A stretch of DNA of 46,914 nucleotides from Patescibacteria group bacterium (GTDB lineage Bacteria > Patescibacteriota > Patescibacteriia > WFTA01 > S139-112): assembly GCA_015485715.1 (NCBI GenBank), contig WFTA01000039.1, positions 1 through 46,914 of the forward strand. Direction: 5' to 3'. Every line of letters begins with the position of its first letter. The first letter of the stretch is position 1. Positions 1-46,855 of this stretch are shown here, in pieces. The notes under the pieces are model-generated. The model saw only the letters and a list, made by a program, of their open reading frames with translations. It had not been told where the DNA came from and did no database searches. The position numbers and the translations under genes were made by a program.

Positions 1-85
1 CATTATTGCAGATATGTTGCTTTAAATCAAATTATATACCCATTGGCTTTATAGCAAGATTTACCTCAAAAAGTGAAGCTGGGCA
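1..85 (-). repeat. TIR-element copy A (cut by the window edge; reverse orientation relative to copy C)
   Basis: Aligns along its length with the copies at 6127-6229, 36809-36917 and 46669-46775. Ends in a degenerate TIR, TCAAAAAGTGAAGCTGGGCA. Confidence 0.75.
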
Positions 86-6126: not shown

Positions 6127-6229
6127 CAGCCCCACTTTTCAAGATTATCTGCAGATATGTTGCTTTAGATTAAGTTATACACCCCTTGACTTTATAGCAA
6201 GATTTGCCTCAAAAAATGGGGCTGGGTTG
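6127..6229 (-). repeat. TIR-element copy B (left TIR shortened)
   Basis: CAGCCCCACTTTTC...TCAAAAAATGGGGCTGGGTTG. Aligns with copies A, C and D. Overlaps the last 11 codons and the stop of comF. Confidence 0.85.
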
Positions 6230-36775: not shown

Positions 36776-36808
36776 TATAATAAAATTCAAAAGGCAAAAG
36801 GCAAAATT

Positions 36809-36917
36809 CAACCCAGCCCCACTTTTTGAGGTAAATCTGTGCTATAAAGCCATAGGGTGTATAATTTGATTTAAAGCAACATATCTGAAGGTAATGTTGA
36901 AAAGTGGGGCTGGGTTG
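36809..36917 (+). repeat. TIR-element copy C (reference copy, perfect 18-bp TIRs)
   Basis: CAACCCAGCCCCACTTTT ...core... AAAAGTGGGGCTGGGTTG, with no internal ORF. Confidence 0.9.
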
Positions 36918-38396: not shown

Positions 38397-39113
38397 ATGA
38401 AAACTGTTGTCATAATCCCCACCTATAATGAAGCAGAGAATATAAAAAACATAATCATGGAAACTTTTCAGGTAAACAATTCTCTGCATATTCTAATTGT
38501 TGACGACAACTCTCCTGACAAAACGTCAGAAAAAGTAAAACAACTTCAGTCAAGCTATACAAACAACCTCCACCTCATAACCAGAGATGGTAAATACGGA
38601 TTAGGGTCAGCATACATTACAGGCTTTAAATGGGCTCTAAAAAACAAATTTACACTAATATGTGAAATGGATGCGGATGGATCCCATAACCCTCAACACA
38701 TAAACGAATTTATAAAATATATAAATCAAGGATATGATGTGGTTATAGGATCAAGAAGGATTAAAGATGGACACATAATTGGATGGAATATATTTAGACA
38801 CATAGCGAGCTTTTCTGCCATGAAATTTGCCAAAATATTCCTAAATCTTAAAACAGAGGATATTACCAGTGGATTTAGGTGTTACCACAAAAAAATATTT
38901 GATAAAATAAATCTGGATAATATCAAAAGCAACGGCTATGCCTTTCAGGAGGAAATGCTTTACTTATGTGAAAAAAATAACTTTAAAATAAAAGAGATAG
39001 CCATCACCTTTGTAGACAGAAAAAAAGGCAAATCAAAATTGACCCTCAAGGATATATTAGAATTTTTTATAGTAATGATTAAACTTAAAATAAATGAATA
39101 TCGTAAAATATAA
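38397..39113 (+). CDS. GT2 polyprenyl-phosphate mannose synthase (Ppm1/DPM1-like)
   Basis: 238 aa. Motifs IIPTYNEAENI, IVDDNSPDKT, GLGSAYITGF and MDADGSHNP. Confidence 0.8.
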   Translation: MKTVVIIPTYNEAENIKNIIMETFQVNNSLHILIVDDNSPDKTSEKVKQLQSSYTNNLHLITRDGKYGLGSAYITGFKWALKNKFTLICEMDADGSHNPQHINEFIKYINQGYDVVIGSRRIKDGHIIGWNIFRHIASFSAMKFAKIFLNLKTEDITSGFRCYHKKIFDKINLDNIKSNGYAFQEEMLYLCEKNNFKIKEIAITFVDRKKGKSKLTLKDILEFFIVMIKLKINEYRKI

Positions 39114-40614
39114 AAATACAATATACCTGACACTTATTGCTGCAGTATCAGCATTATTTAAAATCGGGCTGGCCTTAAAATGGAAAGGGATGCTCTTTGA
39201 TGATATGGTATCAGTATATATAGCCAGGCAATCATTAAGTAATATATGGACATATCTTCAATGGGAAATGCATCCTCCCCTCCATTATCTGTATCTTCAC
39301 TTCTGGATAAATGTATTTGGCGACAGTGATGTAATTATGAGAATTTCAACAATATTTATAAGTATCATCAGTATATTCATAATATACCTTTTAACCAAAA
39401 AAATATCCCAAAACAGCCAAGCTGCTGTACTGGCAGCATTTTTTACTGCCTTTTCTTCATACCAAATCTATTTCTCAACATGGATAAGAATGTATGCTCT
39501 CTTATTTTTTCTTGCGTCATTGTCATTTCTTATATTTTTATATGCTGTTGAAAAAAATAAAAAATCCCTGTGGATACTTTTAACTATTGTCCAAACTTTA
39601 GCTGTCTATACCCATCTTACTGCAATTTTCATATTTATCATAGAGGCCATATACATTTTGTTTTTAAAATATAAGAAAACAATAAAGATCAACACAATAT
39701 ACAAATGGTTTTTATCAGGATTTGTTTCTTTCCTGCTCTTTCTTCCTTGGTTATACAACTTTATAAGTGTCAGGTTAAAAATCTTTCCCTCAAATTCATG
39801 GTATTTTTGGGCAGAAGGATATGATTCTTATTTTTTAACTATTCCTGTCAAGTTTCAATTTGCCGGCGTGGAAAACAACATACTTGATCTTTTGGGAACT
39901 ATAATCGTCATAATAGGGATTATATTTTTTATTTTTGATTTCAAAATAACCGATAAAAAAATAACATCTACAGTCTATGATTTAAAAAACATCATCCTTC
40001 CTTTGAGTATACTGTTTATACCATTATTAATATTTTTTATATTTAAAATAAACACCCTTAGATTTATGTTTATATCATCCATTGGTCTGTATATAATCAT
40101 TGGAATCGGACTGTTTAGAATTATACAAAAAACCAAAATTCCATCATTTTATATCTACTCATTTTTTGTATCTATCATAATTTTGGTCTTTGTATCCCTA
40201 TACTCAACTGACTATACCATAGGGTGGAAAAAAATAATCAATTTTATAAATCAAAACTCTACAAGGAACGAACTCATCCTGGCCAGTCATCCGTTTCAAC
40301 TGCTGCCCTTTTATACTCTATATACCGGAAAGTTGCCCTACATATCATATATACAGGAAGATATCAAAACCAATAATTTGGTAGTAGATATTCTCAAAAC
40401 AAATTTTTATCCTGTATTTACAGAAGATAATGTAAATAAAATAGATGACCTTACAAAAGATTATGACAGGATATTCCTAATCAGAACAGATAAATTCTTT
40501 ACATATTCAAACAGACTTGTATTTGAATATTTAATCTTAAAAGGATGGAAACCTAAAAAAAATCTGAAAATTAAGACATTCACAGAACCGGAGGTATGGA
40601 TACTTGAAAAATAA
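39094..40614 (+). CDS. GT-C fold membrane glycosyltransferase (PMT_2/ArnT-like, GT39/GT83 type)
   Basis: 506 aa with more than 10 hydrophobic helices. Acidic first-loop motif (MLFDDMVSVYIARQ). Overlaps the upstream GT2 gene by 20 nt. Confidence 0.7.
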   Translation: MNIVKYKNTIYLTLIAAVSALFKIGLALKWKGMLFDDMVSVYIARQSLSNIWTYLQWEMHPPLHYLYLHFWINVFGDSDVIMRISTIFISIISIFIIYLLTKKISQNSQAAVLAAFFTAFSSYQIYFSTWIRMYALLFFLASLSFLIFLYAVEKNKKSLWILLTIVQTLAVYTHLTAIFIFIIEAIYILFLKYKKTIKINTIYKWFLSGFVSFLLFLPWLYNFISVRLKIFPSNSWYFWAEGYDSYFLTIPVKFQFAGVENNILDLLGTIIVIIGIIFFIFDFKITDKKITSTVYDLKNIILPLSILFIPLLIFFIFKINTLRFMFISSIGLYIIIGIGLFRIIQKTKIPSFYIYSFFVSIIILVFVSLYSTDYTIGWKKIINFINQNSTRNELILASHPFQLLPFYTLYTGKLPYISYIQEDIKTNNLVVDILKTNFYPVFTEDNVNKIDDLTKDYDRIFLIRTDKFFTYSNRLVFEYLILKGWKPKKNLKIKTFTEPEVWILEK

Positions 40615-41061
40615 TTATCTGGAAGCAATAAGAGTATTCTGACGGATATTATAGGTGCTTTTGTCTTTTGCTTCCTCTATGGATTTGTTTATGATATTGA
40701 ATACCATTACCACTATAGCATAGGATAAAACAATGATAATAAGTCCAATAGACGCATTGGTAATAAGCTTGGTACCCTTTTGTGATCTATCACTATTACC
40801 CCCTGATGTCATCCACATAAACCCTCCATATAATACTATAGCAAAAAATAGTATTCCCAAAAATGTCAAAGCTGATTTTATCAATGTAAGAATAACCACT
40901 CTTAAATCAGATCTATATATTTTCAAATCTAATGGTGTAACACTGTCCACATTCTCTATAATAGTGTCTTTGGGTTGAGCATAGGCAGGATCATTCACTG
41001 TATATACTAAAAAGACCGCAAAGATGAGGATAAATAAAATTAAAATTGCAACTTTTTTCAT
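40615..41061 (-). CDS. T4SS-type (VirB2/TrbC-like, CPR 'T4SS_pilin') pilin paralog P1
   Basis: 148 aa. Signal peptide ending AYAQ and core YGGFMWMTSGGNSDRSQKGTKLITNASIGLIIIVLSYAIV. Confidence 0.72.
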   Translation of the reverse strand: MKKVAILILFILIFAVFLVYTVNDPAYAQPKDTIIENVDSVTPLDLKIYRSDLRVVILTLIKSALTFLGILFFAIVLYGGFMWMTSGGNSDRSQKGTKLITNASIGLIIIVLSYAIVVMVFNIINKSIEEAKDKSTYNIRQNTLIASR

Positions 41062-41071
41062 ATATCCAAAA

Positions 41072-41428
41072 TTACTTTATAAGCTCAGTAAACACAAACT
41101 TAGTGATTGCATAAGCAGACATTATAATAATAACACCTATAACTCCGCTTTTGATAAACCCTGTACCTTTTTTGGCCTTATCAGAGTCACCGCCTGATGT
41201 CATCCACAGAAAACCTCCATATATAGTCAAGATTAAAAAAATAACTCCTATAAATGCAATAACAGTGCTTAAAATATCTCCTATTAAAACTTTAATATCA
41301 GATCTTTTATTCAACCCTGCAGCTCCTGCTGCCTCATCAAGTCCGTATTGAGCAAAAGTGATATAAGGATAATACAATAAAAACAATATAATAAAATAAT
41401 TTGTTATTTTTCTAAACATACTAATCAT
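41072..41428 (-). CDS. T4SS-type pilin paralog P2
   Basis: 118 aa. Signal peptide ending TFAQ and core YGGFLWMTSGGDSDKAKKGTGFIKSGVIGVIIIMSAYAI. Confidence 0.75.
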   Translation of the reverse strand: MISMFRKITNYFIILFLLYYPYITFAQYGLDEAAGAAGLNKRSDIKVLIGDILSTVIAFIGVIFLILTIYGGFLWMTSGGDSDKAKKGTGFIKSGVIGVIIIMSAYAITKFVFTELIK

Positions 41429-41456
41429 ATTATCAATCTGATAATATTATATCATA

Positions 41457-42419
41457 TTAGTATATACAAGTACAATTCACGCATTGACTCTTGAAACCAC
41501 CACCACAATCGCTATCTTGTTCACATTCTTCTCCACCTTCTATTACACCATCTCCACATATAGCTCTTCTTTCACAACACTCCAATCCTGATCCAGAGCA
41601 TGTACCAAAAGCTACCTCTGCACACTCACCAACAGGAACACATCCTGCGGTTCCAGTACAAGTCTTCTCACAGCATACATTTCCTCCAAAACATGACATA
41701 TCTGATCTTAAGCTGTATTCAGGAGGGCACTTGGACATACAGTCAAATATACATGTTTTTGGAGATGGAGAAGGTAAAGATTTTGTAGGGACTGGCTTAC
41801 TACAGCATACAAATGCAGGATCACCGCAAGCACCAACTTTTGAAACCACTTCACACCCTTCTTTAGGCACGCACCCATAATTAGTTAAACATCTATCAGC
41901 AGCTGCACAACATACATATGATGAAGACGGACAAGAGCCGCCTTCCACAGGAACACTGCAGCCAAACCTTGGTACACAGCCTAATACTGCCTCTGAAGGA
42001 CAGGCACCTATAACACTTGATTCCTCTTCATCTCCTAATAATATATTTGAAAATACAAAATTAACCATGGCATATGAAGAAAATACAATGACAATTCCAA
42101 TCACTCCGTTTTTTATGAAGCCTGCTCCTTTTTTTGCCTTTTCAGGATCCCCGGCTGACGTCATCCATAAAAACCCTCCAAATATGGTCAGGACTAAAAA
42201 AAGAACCCCTATCCAGACTATAATCTCACCTATTATTTCACCGGTTGTGACTGTCAATGGTTTATTCTTTTTAATTGCTGCTTCAGTGGCTGCTATGTCT
42301 AAATTTTGTGTATAATTAACAGCCTGAGCATTAGCCTTAGGTATATTGAAAACAAAAAAATAACTCATCAAAACAAGAAGTAAAAAAACACTGCAAATTT
42401 TATAAGATATCCCTCTCAT
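41457..42419 (-). CDS. T4SS-type pilin paralog P3 with a ~190-aa Cys-rich C-terminal extension
   Basis: 320 aa. Signal peptide ending ANAQ and core FGGFLWMTSAGDPEKAKKGAGFIKNGVIGIVIVFSSYAM. This is followed by four 6-Cys modules and a CGDG...EEC...DC tail. Confidence 0.75.
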   Translation of the reverse strand: MRGISYKICSVFLLLVLMSYFFVFNIPKANAQAVNYTQNLDIAATEAAIKKNKPLTVTTGEIIGEIIVWIGVLFLVLTIFGGFLWMTSAGDPEKAKKGAGFIKNGVIGIVIVFSSYAMVNFVFSNILLGDEEESSVIGACPSEAVLGCVPRFGCSVPVEGGSCPSSSYVCCAAADRCLTNYGCVPKEGCEVVSKVGACGDPAFVCCSKPVPTKSLPSPSPKTCIFDCMSKCPPEYSLRSDMSCFGGNVCCEKTCTGTAGCVPVGECAEVAFGTCSGSGLECCERRAICGDGVIEGGEECEQDSDCGGGFKSQCVNCTCIY

Positions 42420-42442
42420 CTGATATGTTTAATTCTAAAAAT

Positions 42443-42470
42443 ATTATATCAAAATATAAAATAAAAACAA
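42443..42470 (-). promoter_or_regulatory. Candidate promoter for P3-P2-P1 (TTGTTT-N16-TGaTATAAT, extended -10)
   Basis: Read on the minus strand between the P4 terminator and the P3 ATG at 42419. Confidence 0.45.
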
Positions 42471-42471
42471 T

Positions 42472-42499
42472 AAAAGCCCCGGCTTGCGCCGGAGCTTTT
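42472..42499 (-). terminator. Intrinsic terminator downstream of P4
   Basis: Minus strand: AAAAGCTCCGGC-gcaa-GCCGGGGCTTTT followed by ATTGTTTTTATTTT. A GC-rich stem in AT-rich DNA. Confidence 0.8.
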
Positions 42500-42520
42500 G
42501 TAATAACATCCAAAAACTTA

Positions 42521-42901
42521 TTAAGTAGCTGCCTGTTCCAAAATATTGAATACAAAAGTTACAATAGCAAATGCTAAGAATATGATAATAAGACCTATTA
42601 CACCGTTGATTATAAACTTTCTACCTTTTCCAGCCTGCTCATCATTGCCCCCCGCTGTCATCCAGAGGAAACCTCCGAAAAGAACCAAAATCAAGAATAT
42701 AATACCAAGAACACCCAGCAAGACATTAATCAAATTAATCAACACCTCTCTTAAATCACCTCTTGGTAAATCAGAGGCACCCAAATAAGAGGTTCCAAAA
42801 TCAGGAGTTCCTCCTCCCTGTGCCAACACTGCTGCTGGCAATACAAAAACAAATAAACTCAAAACAAATGCTGTTATATGTTTTACGAATCTATTTTTCA
42901 T
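42521..42901 (-). CDS. T4SS-type pilin paralog P4
   Basis: 126 aa. Signal peptide ending VLAQ and core FGGFLWMTAGGNDEQAGKGRKFIINGVIGLIIIFLAFAI. Confidence 0.75.
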   Translation of the reverse strand: MKNRFVKHITAFVLSLFVFVLPAAVLAQGGGTPDFGTSYLGASDLPRGDLREVLINLINVLLGVLGIIFLILVLFGGFLWMTAGGNDEQAGKGRKFIINGVIGLIIIFLAFAIVTFVFNILEQAAT

Positions 42902-42984
42902 ATATTTATGTATAAATTACACAAAAATTTTTGTCCCCGACCTTTGAAGTATTAATTGTTTACTGTGGATAACTAACTAATTCT

Positions 42985-42993
42985 ATTATAACA
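42985..42993 (-). promoter_or_regulatory. Candidate extended -10 element (TGTTATAAT) upstream of P4
   Basis: Perfect TGnTATAAT on the minus strand, ~85 nt upstream of the P4 ATG. No convincing -35 element. Confidence 0.35.
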
Positions 42994-43026
42994 AAAAAAA
43001 GAAAAAAATAAAATAAACTATAGTAT

Positions 43027-43497
43027 CTACAAATCATTCTTCTGTTTTTGATCCTGTAAAAATCTGTTATAATCTTGAACATTTTTTTGCAACAACACAT
43101 TACCTATAACCCTAATGATTGTAAATGCACTTAAAATCAATATAATACCAATAACTGTATTTACAAGTATATTCTTTCCCTTTTCAACTCTTTGAGATGA
43201 GCCTGCTGAAGTTAAAAATACAAACCCGCCGTAAATAAAATAAGCAAATGCAGCCACACTCATAACAGCTAATATCCACTGTAAAATATTTATTGCAGTC
43301 TGAATAAAACTGTTTACAGTACAGTCAGCAGGATTTATGCCTGCACAATCTATTGATACAAGTCCTTCAAATTCTTTAGGCTTCTCTGATGCAGGAGGTG
43401 TATTGCCCTGCGAATATACAACATCTATATTGCTGTTATATGCAAAAATCAAGAGAAAAACAGGAATAATAAATATTAAGACAACTTTTCTGTACAT
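43027..43497 (-). CDS. T4SS-type pilin paralog P5 (most divergent)
   Basis: 156 aa. Signal peptide ending VYSQ and core YGGFVFLTSAGSSQRVEKGKNILVNTVIGIILILSAFTI. The ectodomain carries a Cys pair (DCAGINPADC). Confidence 0.65.
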   Translation of the reverse strand: MYRKVVLIFIIPVFLLIFAYNSNIDVVYSQGNTPPASEKPKEFEGLVSIDCAGINPADCTVNSFIQTAINILQWILAVMSVAAFAYFIYGGFVFLTSAGSSQRVEKGKNILVNTVIGIILILSAFTIIRVIGNVLLQKNVQDYNRFLQDQKQKNDL

Positions 43498-43498
43498 A

Positions 43499-44902
43499 TC
43501 AAAATGTTTGATTTACCAATCTTTCAGCCTCTATAATGGCCTTCTGGGGTGTTAATTCACCATTAGTAACCTTTAGTATCATATCCTTAAATATTTTCTC
43601 AACAGCAGATATATTCCTGCCGCGATACCAACTCATTGCCGTAAGAGCCTGATTTGCAAATACAGACATCTCCGGATCAAGGATTTGCTTAGCTATTATA
43701 CTCCTTAAAGCAGCCGGTTTACCGGATCTTTCTAGATATTTTTTTACGACCTCCTGACGAGTTGTTGCAAAATTTACAAAATCCCATGCATAGTCTGAAT
43801 TTGCACTGGTTTTGGCAACAGCCAGTCCCCAAAAACTCCCCCAATTCACACTTGTCCCTGTAGCATCAGTTCCATTGGCATTTATATGCGGAACAGGTGC
43901 TATACCTAAATCTATCTTAGGTGCAAGAGACCTGATAATAGGTTTTTGATATGAATACCCTATCATCATAGCCAATCTCCCGCTTGCAAACATCTCAACT
44001 GCCTGTGGAAAATTCTCAGACCATGTGTATATTGCTTTTGCTGGATTGGCAAAATCTGTATAAAATCGCAGTGCTTCCTGACCGGGTCTGAAATCTCTAT
44101 TTGCAGAATATGCGCTTCTTCTTGCAAAAGTAGCAGTATAACCGTCCGGAGTTGTAAACTGAGTTCCGTTTTGAGCCATCAAAAGAGACAAAATATCAAA
44201 ACTTCTGTTTATATTATATGCTCCACCCAATGCAATAGCAGACTGAAGAATGTTCCCGTCTTCGTCATACTTGGTTAATTTCCTAGATATATTTGCAACC
44301 TCAACCCAGCTTTTCGGAGGTACGACAATGCCCGCTTGATCAAGAAGCAGTCTGTTATAATACAAAACAAGAGTGTCTACAGATACGGGAAGGGCCCATA
44401 CCTTGTTATCACTTACTGCATTTTCATAAACAATCTGAACAAATCTGTCTTTTACTTCTAATGGTCTTAAGAATTTAACATTCTCAAATCCATATTTAAC
44501 TTTCTTCTTCAATCCGCCTGTCACTTCTCCTACAGGAATTTCCTTAACACCTTCAGGTGCAGGCGCAAGCTTCGTCTTATAACCACCCACCCAAGTATTA
44601 TGAACCATAATTATGTCGGGACCCCTGCCTTCTGCCCACGCATCCAGAAGTTCTCTTTCGTAATTCTCAAATTTAATTTTCCTGTAATTTATATCTACAT
44701 TTAATCTACTCTTTCTGTATGATTGTATAACAGGCTCCCAATCATAATTAGTATCAAAAACACCCCAAAACTCCAAAGTAACTTTGTTTTTCATCATCCT
44801 CTTTGCCCTTACAGAATCAGATACGCACCCCGCTCCCAATAAAAAAACCAGCAAAAAACTGGCTATAGTGAATAATATCCTGTTTTTTCTACCTTTCGTC
44901 AT
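43499..44902 (-). CDS. Extracellular solute-binding lipoprotein (ABC-transporter SBP, family 1 sugar type)
   Basis: The track start at 44953 is a TTG inside a TTGAAAATT repeat. The ATG at 44902 gives MTKGRKNRILFTIASFLLVFLLGAGC, a lipoprotein signal. The body is typical of sugar SBPs (TLEFWGVF..., PDIIMVHNTW). Confidence 0.75.
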   Translation of the reverse strand: MTKGRKNRILFTIASFLLVFLLGAGCVSDSVRAKRMMKNKVTLEFWGVFDTNYDWEPVIQSYRKSRLNVDINYRKIKFENYERELLDAWAEGRGPDIIMVHNTWVGGYKTKLAPAPEGVKEIPVGEVTGGLKKKVKYGFENVKFLRPLEVKDRFVQIVYENAVSDNKVWALPVSVDTLVLYYNRLLLDQAGIVVPPKSWVEVANISRKLTKYDEDGNILQSAIALGGAYNINRSFDILSLLMAQNGTQFTTPDGYTATFARRSAYSANRDFRPGQEALRFYTDFANPAKAIYTWSENFPQAVEMFASGRLAMMIGYSYQKPIIRSLAPKIDLGIAPVPHINANGTDATGTSVNWGSFWGLAVAKTSANSDYAWDFVNFATTRQEVVKKYLERSGKPAALRSIIAKQILDPEMSVFANQALTAMSWYRGRNISAVEKIFKDMILKVTNGELTPQKAIIEAERLVNQTF

Positions 44903-45198
44903 ACATCTAAATAATACCACAAAACAAAGAATAAAACAATAAACAATTTTCAATCCCGGTCATAACGACGGGATAAATAATCAATTTTCAATTTACCAAT
45001 TTTTCAATCAATTATTTAATTATCCAATGAATTAAATCCTAAACTCTGCATCAAAATCAGTGTATATTTATAGTTTAAACCATTAAGTCATTAAATAATT
45101 GAAAATTTGAAAATCATTGTTGGTTATTGTTCAGGATTTCGGACTTTTAAATCTAAGATGATAAAAATACAGGCAAATCAGACTGCTCACCTCCCTCA

Positions 45199-46668: not shown

Positions 46669-46775
46669 CACCCAGCTCCACTTTTTGAGGTAAATCTTGC
46701 TCTAAAGCCAATAGGTATATAATTTGCTTTAAAACAACATATCTGCAGATAATCTTGAAAAGTGGGGCTGGGTTG
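46669..46775 (+). repeat. TIR-element copy D
   Basis: CACCCAGCTCCACTTTTT...core...AAAAGTGGGGCTGGGTTG. The core has the same orientation as copy C, but the outer flanks are inverted relative to C. Confidence 0.9.
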
Positions 46776-46855
46776 ACTTTTGAATTTTGCCTTTTGAATT
46801 TTATTATATTATTTCCTTAATTTTGAATTTTGATTTTTGAATTTTGAATTTTTAT
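46776..46855. repeat. Short tandem TTGAATTTT-type repeats
   Basis: acttttgaattttgccttttgaatttt...ttaattttgaattttgatttttgaattttgaattttt. Confidence 0.65.

Follow-up and report, generated by a model that had tools for sequence, protein, structure and literature searches.

Patescibacteria are known to carry tandem arrays of 2–11 divergent genes for VirB2-like pilins, the mean identity of which is ~25% (Quinonero-Coronel et al. 2025, PMC12102498), and in 1135 of 1948 assemblies a pilin gene is found near virB4 (PMC12102498). The sole genetically tractable Patescibacterium cannot grow epibiotically without such arrays (PMC10633639, PMC11665869), as reported for Southlakia epibionticum (PMC10633639; PMC12857230). 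A survey of Patescibacteria type IV secretion systems (T4SSs) detected no adhesin, for example, no dedicated one of the PrgB kind (PMC12102498). The locus described here is located in a stretch of 46,914 nucleotides (contig WFTA01000039.1 of assembly GCA_015485715.1), analyzed as a whole and referred to below as the window, which contains five co-oriented pilin genes (40615–43497) with products that are 25–48% identical. The third gene, P3, is a single open reading frame (ORF) in which a two-helix pilin is joined to a Cys-rich domain, as a sequence-only reading of this DNA had described; seven contigs carry the fusion unbroken, and purifying selection acts on it.

The pilin part of P3 is well delimited. 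Residues 63–122 match the Pfam family T4SS_pilin (PF18895) with 39.4 bits against a cut-off of 26.6, in agreement with the precomputed annotation. Hydropathy reveals hydrophobic segments at residues 3–29, 55–90, and 101–128, the second helix stopping at about residue 128, and the AlphaFold2 (AF2) model places the two helices at residues 57–88 and 92–127 with a predicted local distance difference test (pLDDT) score of 74–82. In a Foldseek search, the full-length model (pLDDT 52) retrieved generic helical hairpins and nothing else. The proteins encoded by the other genes of the array are 28–48% identical to P3 and have the motif GGF.WMT..G...K.KG in common.

The remainder of the protein, residues 129–320, corresponds to positions 41460–42035, the interval to which the sequence-only reading had assigned the extension, and the end of helix 2 agrees with this junction. 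P3 contains 31 Cys, one in the signal peptide and 30 in these 192 residues; Cys thus makes up 15.6% of the extension compared with 0.56% (80/14,349) of the residues encoded by the window's other genes, an enrichment far above chance. When the translation is searched with the regular expression C-x3-8-C-x3-5-C-x7-11-C-x5-6-CC, exactly four non-overlapping matches are obtained in P3, which reproduces the four six-Cys modules with their sequences; the count of 30 Cys given earlier is confirmed as well. The Cys spacings of modules 1–4 are 7-5-8-6-0, 5-5-8-6-0, 3-3-11-5-0, and 5-5-7-6-0, respectively. Modules 2 and 3 are separated by the stretch PVPTKSLPSPSPKT (residues 209–222), and the protein ends in the tail ICGDGVIEGGEECEQDSDCGGGFKSQCVNCTC, with the motif CGDG-x6-E-x-CE-x-D-x-DC; both are present as they had been described. 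Given that the modules are only 24–36% identical to one another and that no DNA-level tandem repeat was found within the extension, they are old duplications, and a recent internal duplication of the DNA is ruled out. The region had also been noted as GC-rich, which holds for its overall composition (0.435 versus 0.333 in the pilin part) but not for GC content at third codon positions (GC3; 0.224 versus 0.273). The rise therefore stems from codons for Cys, Gly, Ala, Pro, and Val rather than from a foreign origin, and horizontal acquisition, which the GC content might suggest, is rejected.

The P3 ORF is intact in syntenic arrays on seven contigs that represent four allele types, the contigs of relatives coming from GCA_054030415.1, GCA_027072705.1, GCA_015487705.1, and three Logan read-run assemblies. 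The orthologue P0005 has 352 aa and is 78% identical, while P0006 and P0007 are at least 94% identical. These relatives share the five-pilin array together with the flanking genes for a solute-binding protein (SBP), a TPR protein, PMT_2, and GT2, and the array is syntenic in contigs L001, L028, and L029. All 30 Cys of the extension are invariant across the four alleles. In comparison with the 78%-identical orthologue, the ratio of nonsynonymous to synonymous divergence (dN/dS) is 0.05 for the signal peptide and pilin and 0.09 for modules 1–3. The same frame on seven contigs, the invariant Cys, and the low dN/dS together exclude, for practical purposes, a frameshift or chimera at the junction; a frameshift or stop near 42035 that would separate the pilin from the Cys-rich part, a concern raised by the sequence-only reading, was not found, the ORF being unbroken across independent assemblies and read-run assemblies. 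Thus, the P3 fusion is a real gene under purifying selection. Profile scans of genome and metagenome contigs with the P3 alignment revealed no further P3 alleles.

The extension has few recognizable relatives. Neither the whole of it nor single modules match anything significantly in Pfam or NCBIfam, PDB sequence searches with the extension gave no match, to the four modules or otherwise, a word-indexed homology search with the extension returned P3 itself only, and tblastn against plasmids and phages gave no match. With phmmer against 1.84 billion representative sequences, the four modules have no sequence relatives, and only the last ~35 residues have any. The full-length structure model is poor over residues 129–320, and module 1 on its own, modeled from an alignment of 15 modules, reaches a pLDDT of 86.7 with two short strands only. 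A Foldseek search of the PDB with this module model retrieved only avian beta-defensin 11 (AvBD11; E 3.8–5.1, TM 0.46–0.50), and the best PDB profile match is the tick carboxypeptidase inhibitor (TCI) domain with six Cys aligned (E 0.39), neither of which is significant. An hhalign comparison with nine beta-defensins gave a probability of 24.6% (P = 8e-4) over the C-terminal 17 columns, whereas that with alpha-defensins gave 0.16% (P 0.36). No P3 module matches the Pfam family Defensin_beta (PF00711), which matches one of the 15 aligned modules (E 0.007), a module that is not among the four of the window's P3. These hints of a beta-defensin-like fold, although mutually consistent, are none of them significant; they offer a weak lead, and the modules are not assigned to this fold.

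For the tail, the phmmer search found matches to 15 stretches of P0002, a 2748-aa protein sorted by the type IX secretion system (E 3e-8), and to two smaller proteins, P0003 and P0004. All three are large secreted proteins that match DUF4215 weakly, and P0004 contains a MopE-type Cu-binding motif. The Cys spacing of the tail, C-10-C-5-C-7-C-2-C-1-C, compares with a modal C-10-C-5-C-5-C-2-C-1-C in 22 repeats from these three proteins, and a local hidden Markov model (HMM) of the 22 repeats aligns the tail end to end with 30–38 bits. The DUF4215 model (PF13948) itself gives 10.9 bits (E 0.59) and misses its cut-off of 27, and NCBIfam gives no TIGR02232 match at E ≤ 1. The likeness to the CGDG...EECD repeat that had been suggested is thus borne out by phmmer and by Cys spacing, but not by the curated models; judged by its motif and spacing, the tail reads as one copy of this repeat class, though under the DUF4215 threshold.

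Extended pilins are found elsewhere in Patescibacteria. Among 120 relatives retrieved with the pilin-domain profile (median 139 aa, maximum 248 aa), nine have C-terminal extensions with 5–12 Cys and nine have Cys-rich N-terminal inserts. A second sample consisted of 80 metagenomic loci, which are the best 80 matches and not a random set, with 359 pilin ORFs called from the first Met. Here, at least 4 Cys past the pilin core are present in 45 of the 359 (about 12%), C-terminal extensions of at least 100 aa in 14 of the 359, and in 25 of the 52 arrays with at least three pilins, one or more of the pilins have a Cys-rich extension. In most extensions of pilins other than P3, the number of Cys is even. 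A six-Cys framework C-C-C-C-CC, loosely similar to that of P3, is present in one or two copies on other pilins. It occurs in the C-terminal extensions of 5/359 pilin ORFs, often with the ending G-x-C-P-G-x4-6-CC, and in P0020, P0112, P0092, and P0099 of the first sample, always, by the strict pattern, as one copy; it was found in 0/650 non-pilin ORFs of the same loci. Among the pilins sampled, four or five copies are confined to the P3 lineage. Sought in other proteins with a local HMM, the module gave no significant match among 1009 metagenomic ORFs, so that only pattern and motif link it to the six-Cys modules of other pilins.

Other extensions are much larger. A PF18895 pilin of 1605 aa carries Big_5, TIG, and Big_7 domains with DUF4215 repeats at its end, and two others, of 637 and 653 aa, carry Big_5. 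These large PF18895 proteins, which range from 453 to 1605 aa (L072, 3084–9740 (+); L085, 2997–4958; L081, 4833–6746; L037, 4986–6347), have extensions of up to 1479 aa composed of Big_5, TIG, Big_7, or DUF4215, or containing 40 Cys with no Pfam match; they, too, have the appearance of modular VirB2-like pilins. The literature on Patescibacteria T4SSs that was searched makes no mention of pilin fusions, cysteines, or disulfides. The earlier impression that the fusion is undescribed is consistent with this silence, but P3 is not a one-off: Cys-rich or immunoglobulin (Ig)-like pilin extensions are a recurrent and apparently undescribed architecture, of which P3 is the most elaborate example seen. 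A different arrangement, in which a Cys-rich segment with 6–19 Cys lies between the signal peptide and helix 1, is present in P0090, P0103, P0118, P0121, and P0058, and on L105 (53–1123).

Differences between close strains are concentrated at the distal end of P3. Of the 23 columns in which L028 differs from the window over 5,007 bases, 20 are inside a 300-bp patch (Table 1), and the same holds for 56 of the 62 that distinguish L029 over 9,764 bases. The patch, which differs by 15–26% between otherwise identical strains, crosses the 28-nt spacer between P3 and the next pilin gene. Its alleles are mosaic, the tail of L028 being that of the window and its module-4 allele that of L029. In the close strains, codons 1–235 have no substitutions, codons 236–284 have a dS of 0.26–0.41 and a dN of 0.07–0.11, and the L029 tail has a dS of 0.85 and a dN of 0.19. 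Against the distant orthologue, which has one extra whole module in this segment, dS reaches ~1.0–1.3 there compared with 0.32 elsewhere. The changes comprise all base types as well as indels and reach into intergenic DNA. The high dS, the mosaicism, and the spread into noncoding sequence point to recombinational exchange of old alleles, and not to positive selection on point mutations, as the source of this diversity, and ordinary homologous recombination between strains is the probable mechanism. An origin from a diversity-generating retroelement or from silent cassettes is rejected for the window, where no second copy of the patch, template repeat, silent cassette, or reverse transcriptase was found, and where all base types, indels, and intergenic DNA are affected. 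The variable part, comprising module 4 and the CGDG repeat, has the appearance of an exposed tip on which diversifying pressure acts at the population level, as would be expected of a surface that recognizes a host or is exposed to attack.

On balance, the probability tips slightly toward P3 being a modular VirB2-like pilin that is displayed on the surface, is stapled by disulfides, and acts in adhesion or host recognition, its stalk being conserved and its tip swapped through recombination. P3 would be exported by Sec and its signal peptide removed, after which the two hydrophobic helices would form an inserted hairpin whose Lys-rich loop lies in the cytoplasm, or faces the lumen if a VirB2-type filament forms. 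By the positive-inside rule, a cytoplasmic Lys-rich loop means that the mature N-terminus and the C-terminal extension face outward; the extracytoplasmic position proposed by the sequence-only reading is thus supported by the Sec signal peptide and the helix-loop-helix that succeeds it. The 192-residue extension would then be exposed at the cell exterior or along the outer surface of the filament, where it should be oxidized, and its 30 Cys could form ~15 disulfides, three per unit, producing a rigid chain of four knotted modules and a terminal CGDG repeat. The presence of six Cys per module and the mostly even numbers of Cys in other extended pilins speak for such bonding, and genomes of the candidate phyla radiation (CPR) are enriched in an MdbA-like oxidoreductase and VKOR (bioRxiv 10.1101/335083). 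Modules 1–3 would constitute the conserved stalk, and module 4 with the CGDG repeat the tip that contacts a partner, most likely the host cell of the presumed epibiont, while exchange of old, divergent alleles by recombination would keep this tip diverse in the population. Display could occur either on a filament made mainly of the short paralogues or on the membrane itself. By analogy, the Big_5, TIG, and Big_7 fusions on pilins of the same family back a role at the surface, as do the frequency of Cys-rich extensions among the sampled arrays, the lack of a dedicated adhesin in the T4SS survey, and the essential nature of the array in Southlakia epibionticum. The function as an adhesin or tip, suggested before these comparisons, thus stays a proposal, to which the hypervariable distal end adds new evidence at the strain level.

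Several observations weigh against this role. Filament formation by Patescibacteria VirB2-like proteins is itself described as a possibility (PMC12857230), and an appendage of 192 residues on every subunit could hinder helical packing. Among ORFs of at least 100 aa in the window, no VirB4, VirB6, or VirD4 domain was found, so that pilin-domain homology is the sole link to a T4SS. Dsb-like oxidoreductases, which the sequence-only reading had proposed to look for in the genome, are likewise absent from the window, as are MdbA and VKOR. In the full-length AF2 model, the extension has a poor pLDDT of 31–60. The dN/dS of the patch is 0.2–0.4, not above 1, and its diversity has the look of old alleles that were exchanged, positive selection not being demonstrable; in addition, metagenome assemblers that merge co-existing strains could explain part of the mosaicism.

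P3 may instead be a membrane-anchored surface protein that forms no filament, the helical hairpin serving only as the anchor, as VirB2-like proteins may do in the T4SS channels of monoderms, and the Cys-rich ectodomain reaching across the wall or S-layer to act as a receptor or adhesin that is fixed in place. This is unlikely in our judgment, though it deserves serious consideration, since Gram-positive T4SSs are generally without pili and a pilus of Patescibacteria has not yet been seen (PMC12857230; PMC10633639). The best NCBIfam match of P3, although sub-threshold, is a "pilin-like conjugal transfer protein" from a Mycoplasma integrative and conjugative element, and extensions of the largest size found on related pilins would fit poorly on every subunit of a filament. 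On the other side, the P3 core is as conserved as the short paralogues, being 48% identical to its neighbor and retaining all family-invariant residues, which suggests equal assembly constraints, and arrays mixing short and extended pilins resemble sets of major and minor subunits. Within the proposal of a displayed adhesin pilin, a more ambitious version can be formulated, in which a conjugative-type (VirB2-like) pilus carries tandem beta-defensin-like modules, the strain-specific choice of host cell is set by the CGDG repeat together with the distal module that recombines, and modular VirB2 pilins with Cys-knot or Ig-like extensions are the missing adhesins of the essential T4SS; we regard this as improbable.

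A precursor of secreted defensin-like peptides is a still weaker candidate, quite improbable in our view. In that case, the pilin would be an export and anchor leader, and cleavage at the acidic or Ser/Thr/Pro linkers would free small disulfide-rich peptides, possibly of beta-defensin-like fold, that act on the host envelope. The Cys framework of the modules does resemble the spacing canonical for beta-defensins, C-6-C-4-C-9-C-6-CC, the AvBD11, TCI, and beta- versus alpha-defensin matches go in the same direction, and C-terminal processing is a property of the RP4 pilin TrbC. Nevertheless, none of the fold or profile matches is significant, the modules of P3 have an acidic or neutral character, unlike cationic antimicrobial defensins, and neither a cleavage site for a protease nor a gene for one is apparent. 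Moreover, the Ig-like adhesin domains at the same position in related pilins argue for display and not for release. It is very improbable that the extension is a metal-binding or redox domain in which the Cys bind Zn, Cu, or Fe or buffer thiols instead of forming structural disulfides: the very high Cys content and the MopE-type motif of P0004 would suit such a domain, but the extension is predicted to be extracytoplasmic, its strict six-Cys periodicity comes with no His or Asp partners at fixed positions, its CC doublets and Cys spacing are of the kind usual in knotted mini-proteins, and the Cys counts of related extensions are mostly even. Finally, an artefact, in which a frameshift, an assembly chimera, or a miscalled ORF joins a short pilin to an unrelated Cys-rich ORF, is hardly credible, because, although family members have mostly 100–190 aa and the source is a metagenome-type assembly, the frame is identical on the seven contigs from independent assemblies and read sets, the junction has no substitutions in close strains and conservative changes only in the orthologue, dN/dS is 0.09 immediately past it, and GC3 is continuous over it.

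The features of the locus are collected in Table 1. Directly after paralogue 2 and before P3, a strong terminator-like hairpin is followed by a promoter-like site, which could split the array into two transcription units and would be compatible with a separate, lower expression of P3 as a minor subunit. Upstream of the array is a gene for a solute-binding protein (SBP_bac_1) in which a lipobox-like LLGAGC occurs, and its end and the start of the first pilin gene are one base apart; this junction is kept in L001 and L029, suggesting co-transcription of the lipoprotein with the pilins. At the other end, genes for a GT2 glycosyltransferase and a PMT_2 membrane enzyme (protein O-mannosyltransferase/ArnT-like) overlap each other, abut the last pilin gene, and are convergent with it. 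The pair is syntenic in all relatives, and it may be speculated that the Ser/Thr/Pro linker of P3 is a plausible substrate for O-glycosylation.

The rest of the window, with 35% GC, contains chromosomal housekeeping genes, including dnaE, topA, dnaG, rpoD, clpB, lysS, parAB, ftsW, and relA/spoT. Its DnaE is ~50% identical to those of metagenome-assembled genomes (MAGs) labeled Saccharibacteria, Paceibacterota, and Adlerbacteria, and this likeness to CPR MAGs identifies the source as a Patescibacteria (CPR) bacterium. The top DnaE match (61% over residues 437–1175) is on L020 (CAYQCH010000007.1), labeled "uncultured Gammaproteobacteria"; given that the other close matches (~46–52%) are from CPR MAGs, this label is probably a binning or taxonomy error. 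An intergenic repeat of ~105 nt is present in four copies, the first of which is cut by the window start, and is also found in L001 and L029. It folds into a long hairpin (−29.7 kcal/mol, z = −2.7) with the closing stem CCCAGCCCCACTTTT / AAAAGTGGGGCTGGG, matches no Rfam family, and may be a structured RNA or else a mobile element of small size. In addition, beside a tRNA-Leu gene is a giant ORF of 3187 aa with no Pfam match at E ≤ 0.001, no hydrophobic segment, and 3 Cys, the product of which is apparently cytoplasmic.

Table 1. Positions of P3, its parts, and neighboring features in the 46,914-nt window
Feature	Coordinates	Strand	Basis
P3 gene (320 aa), encoding a signal peptide, a VirB2-like pilin domain, and the Cys-rich extension	41457..42419	-	ORF list, PF18895, intact orthologues on seven contigs
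Sec-type signal peptide, residues 1–31 (MRGISYK, hydrophobic core, ANA↓Q)	42327..42419	-	Sequence; hydrophobic segment 3–29; predicted cleavage site
Pilin core, residues 55–128: helix 1, Lys-rich loop (SAGDPEKAKKGAG), helix 2	42036..42257	-	PF18895, AF2, hydropathy, paralogue motif
Acidic junction linker GDEEESSVIGA, residues 129–139	42003..42035	-	Sequence
Six-Cys module 1, residues 140–171	41907..42002	-	Regular expression, module alignment
Six-Cys module 2, residues 177–206	41802..41891	-	Regular expression, module alignment
Ser/Thr/Pro-rich linker SKPVPTKSLPSPSPKT, residues 207–222	41754..41801	-	Sequence; kept in orthologue
Six-Cys module 3, residues 223–250, divergent spacing C-3-C-3-C-11-C-5-CC	41670..41753	-	Regular expression
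Six-Cys module 4, residues 254–282, strain-variable, duplicated in orthologue P0005	41574..41660	-	Regular expression, alignments
Tail resembling the CGDG...E-CE...DC...C-x2-C-x-C repeat, residues 288–318	41466..41558	-	phmmer to P0002–P0004, Cys spacing, local HMM
Hypervariable patch, 300 bp: end of module 3, module 4, tail, intergenic DNA, first codons of next pilin gene	41413..41712	.	Strain alignments
Pilin paralogue 1, 156 aa	43027..43497	-	PF18895 39.6 bits
Pilin paralogue 2, 126 aa	42521..42901	-	PF18895 37.2 bits; PF04956 TrbC/VirB2 24.3 versus 27.9 bits, sub-threshold
Pilin paralogue 4, 118 aa, 48% identical to P3 pilin part	41072..41428	-	PF18895 34.7 bits, alignment
Pilin paralogue 5, 148 aa	40615..41061	-	PF18895 24.3 bits, slightly under cut-off; aligns with the others
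Terminator-like hairpin, 12-bp stem with 7 GC pairs, T-run, after paralogue 2 and before P3	42472..42499	-	Consensus scan, sequence reading
Promoter-like site after the terminator-like hairpin	42460–42432	-	Consensus match
SBP_bac_1 solute-binding protein	43499–44953	-	
GT2 glycosyltransferase and PMT_2 genes	38397–40614	+	
Intergenic repeat (~105 nt), copy 1	1–83		
Intergenic repeat, copy 2	6127–6229	+	
Intergenic repeat, copy 3	36807–36917	-	
Intergenic repeat, copy 4	46670–46812	-	
Giant ORF, 3187 aa	20987–30550	-	

A pilin with its own rigid ectodomain would be a concrete candidate for host contact, as would the extended pilins, some of them Ig-like, that are present in about half of the sampled arrays. 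The 300-bp patch marks the residues most likely to set specificity and makes host range testable. If the proposed display is true, P3 would be, to our knowledge, the first natural VirB2-type pilin to serve as a display scaffold.

Known systems resemble P3 in part. The beta-defensin fold family, known from animals (trans-defensins, TCI, AvBD11), has six Cys ending in CC with similar spacing, and in TCI and AvBD11 the modules are in tandem as in P3; the P3 modules differ in having no significant sequence or fold match and in not being cationic. With DUF4215/TIGR02232, the "Myxococcus cysteine-rich repeat", the P3 tail shares motif and spacing, but it is a single, sub-threshold copy. The 1605-aa Patescibacteria pilin, like P3, ends in CGDG-type repeats, which in that protein are DUF4215. 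Variable filament tips, such as the variable regions of pilins and the tips of phage tail fibers, are comparable in that the divergence of P3 is sharply distal and its alleles mosaic, whereas the P3 window has no silent cassettes, template repeat, or reverse transcriptase. F-pilin TraA and the VirB2/TrbC pilins of diderms likewise consist of a signal peptide followed by a two-helix hairpin. P3, which belongs to a monoderm organism, has no match to their Pfam family (PF04956, TrbC/VirB2), and one paralogue is sub-threshold. VirB2 and TrbC are cyclized or trimmed, and we know of no natural C-terminal domain fusions of TraA or VirB2/TrbC pilins. In design, P3 is reminiscent of PilB and PilC of Streptococcus sanguinis, in which a pilin with a C-terminal functional module provides adhesion beside short pilins (PMC8179133, PMC9934059). 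This likeness is one of design only: type IV pilins form an unrelated superfamily in which a class III signal peptide is combined with one long N-terminal helix, whereas P3 has neither, no class III signal peptide or G/FTLxE motif being found in it, its N-terminus being Sec-type (ANA↓Q), and its core being a helical hairpin; in addition, the grafted modules of PilB and PilC are vWA and lectin domains, and those of P3 are putative Cys-knots. The closest relatives are the VirB2-like arrays of Patescibacteria (Wang et al. 2023, PMC10633639; PMC12102498), with which the locus shares a PF18895 pilin domain, above threshold in P3, a tandem array of five paralogues, and a Patescibacteria-type chromosome, although, unlike many of the arrays described, it has no adjacent virB4 within 47 kb. 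As described, those pilins are small, with no mention of C-terminal domains, cysteines, or disulfides, and P3 adds 192 aa and 30 Cys; among the known VirB2-like pilins of Patescibacteria, it is thus a modular form that bears putative Cys-knots.

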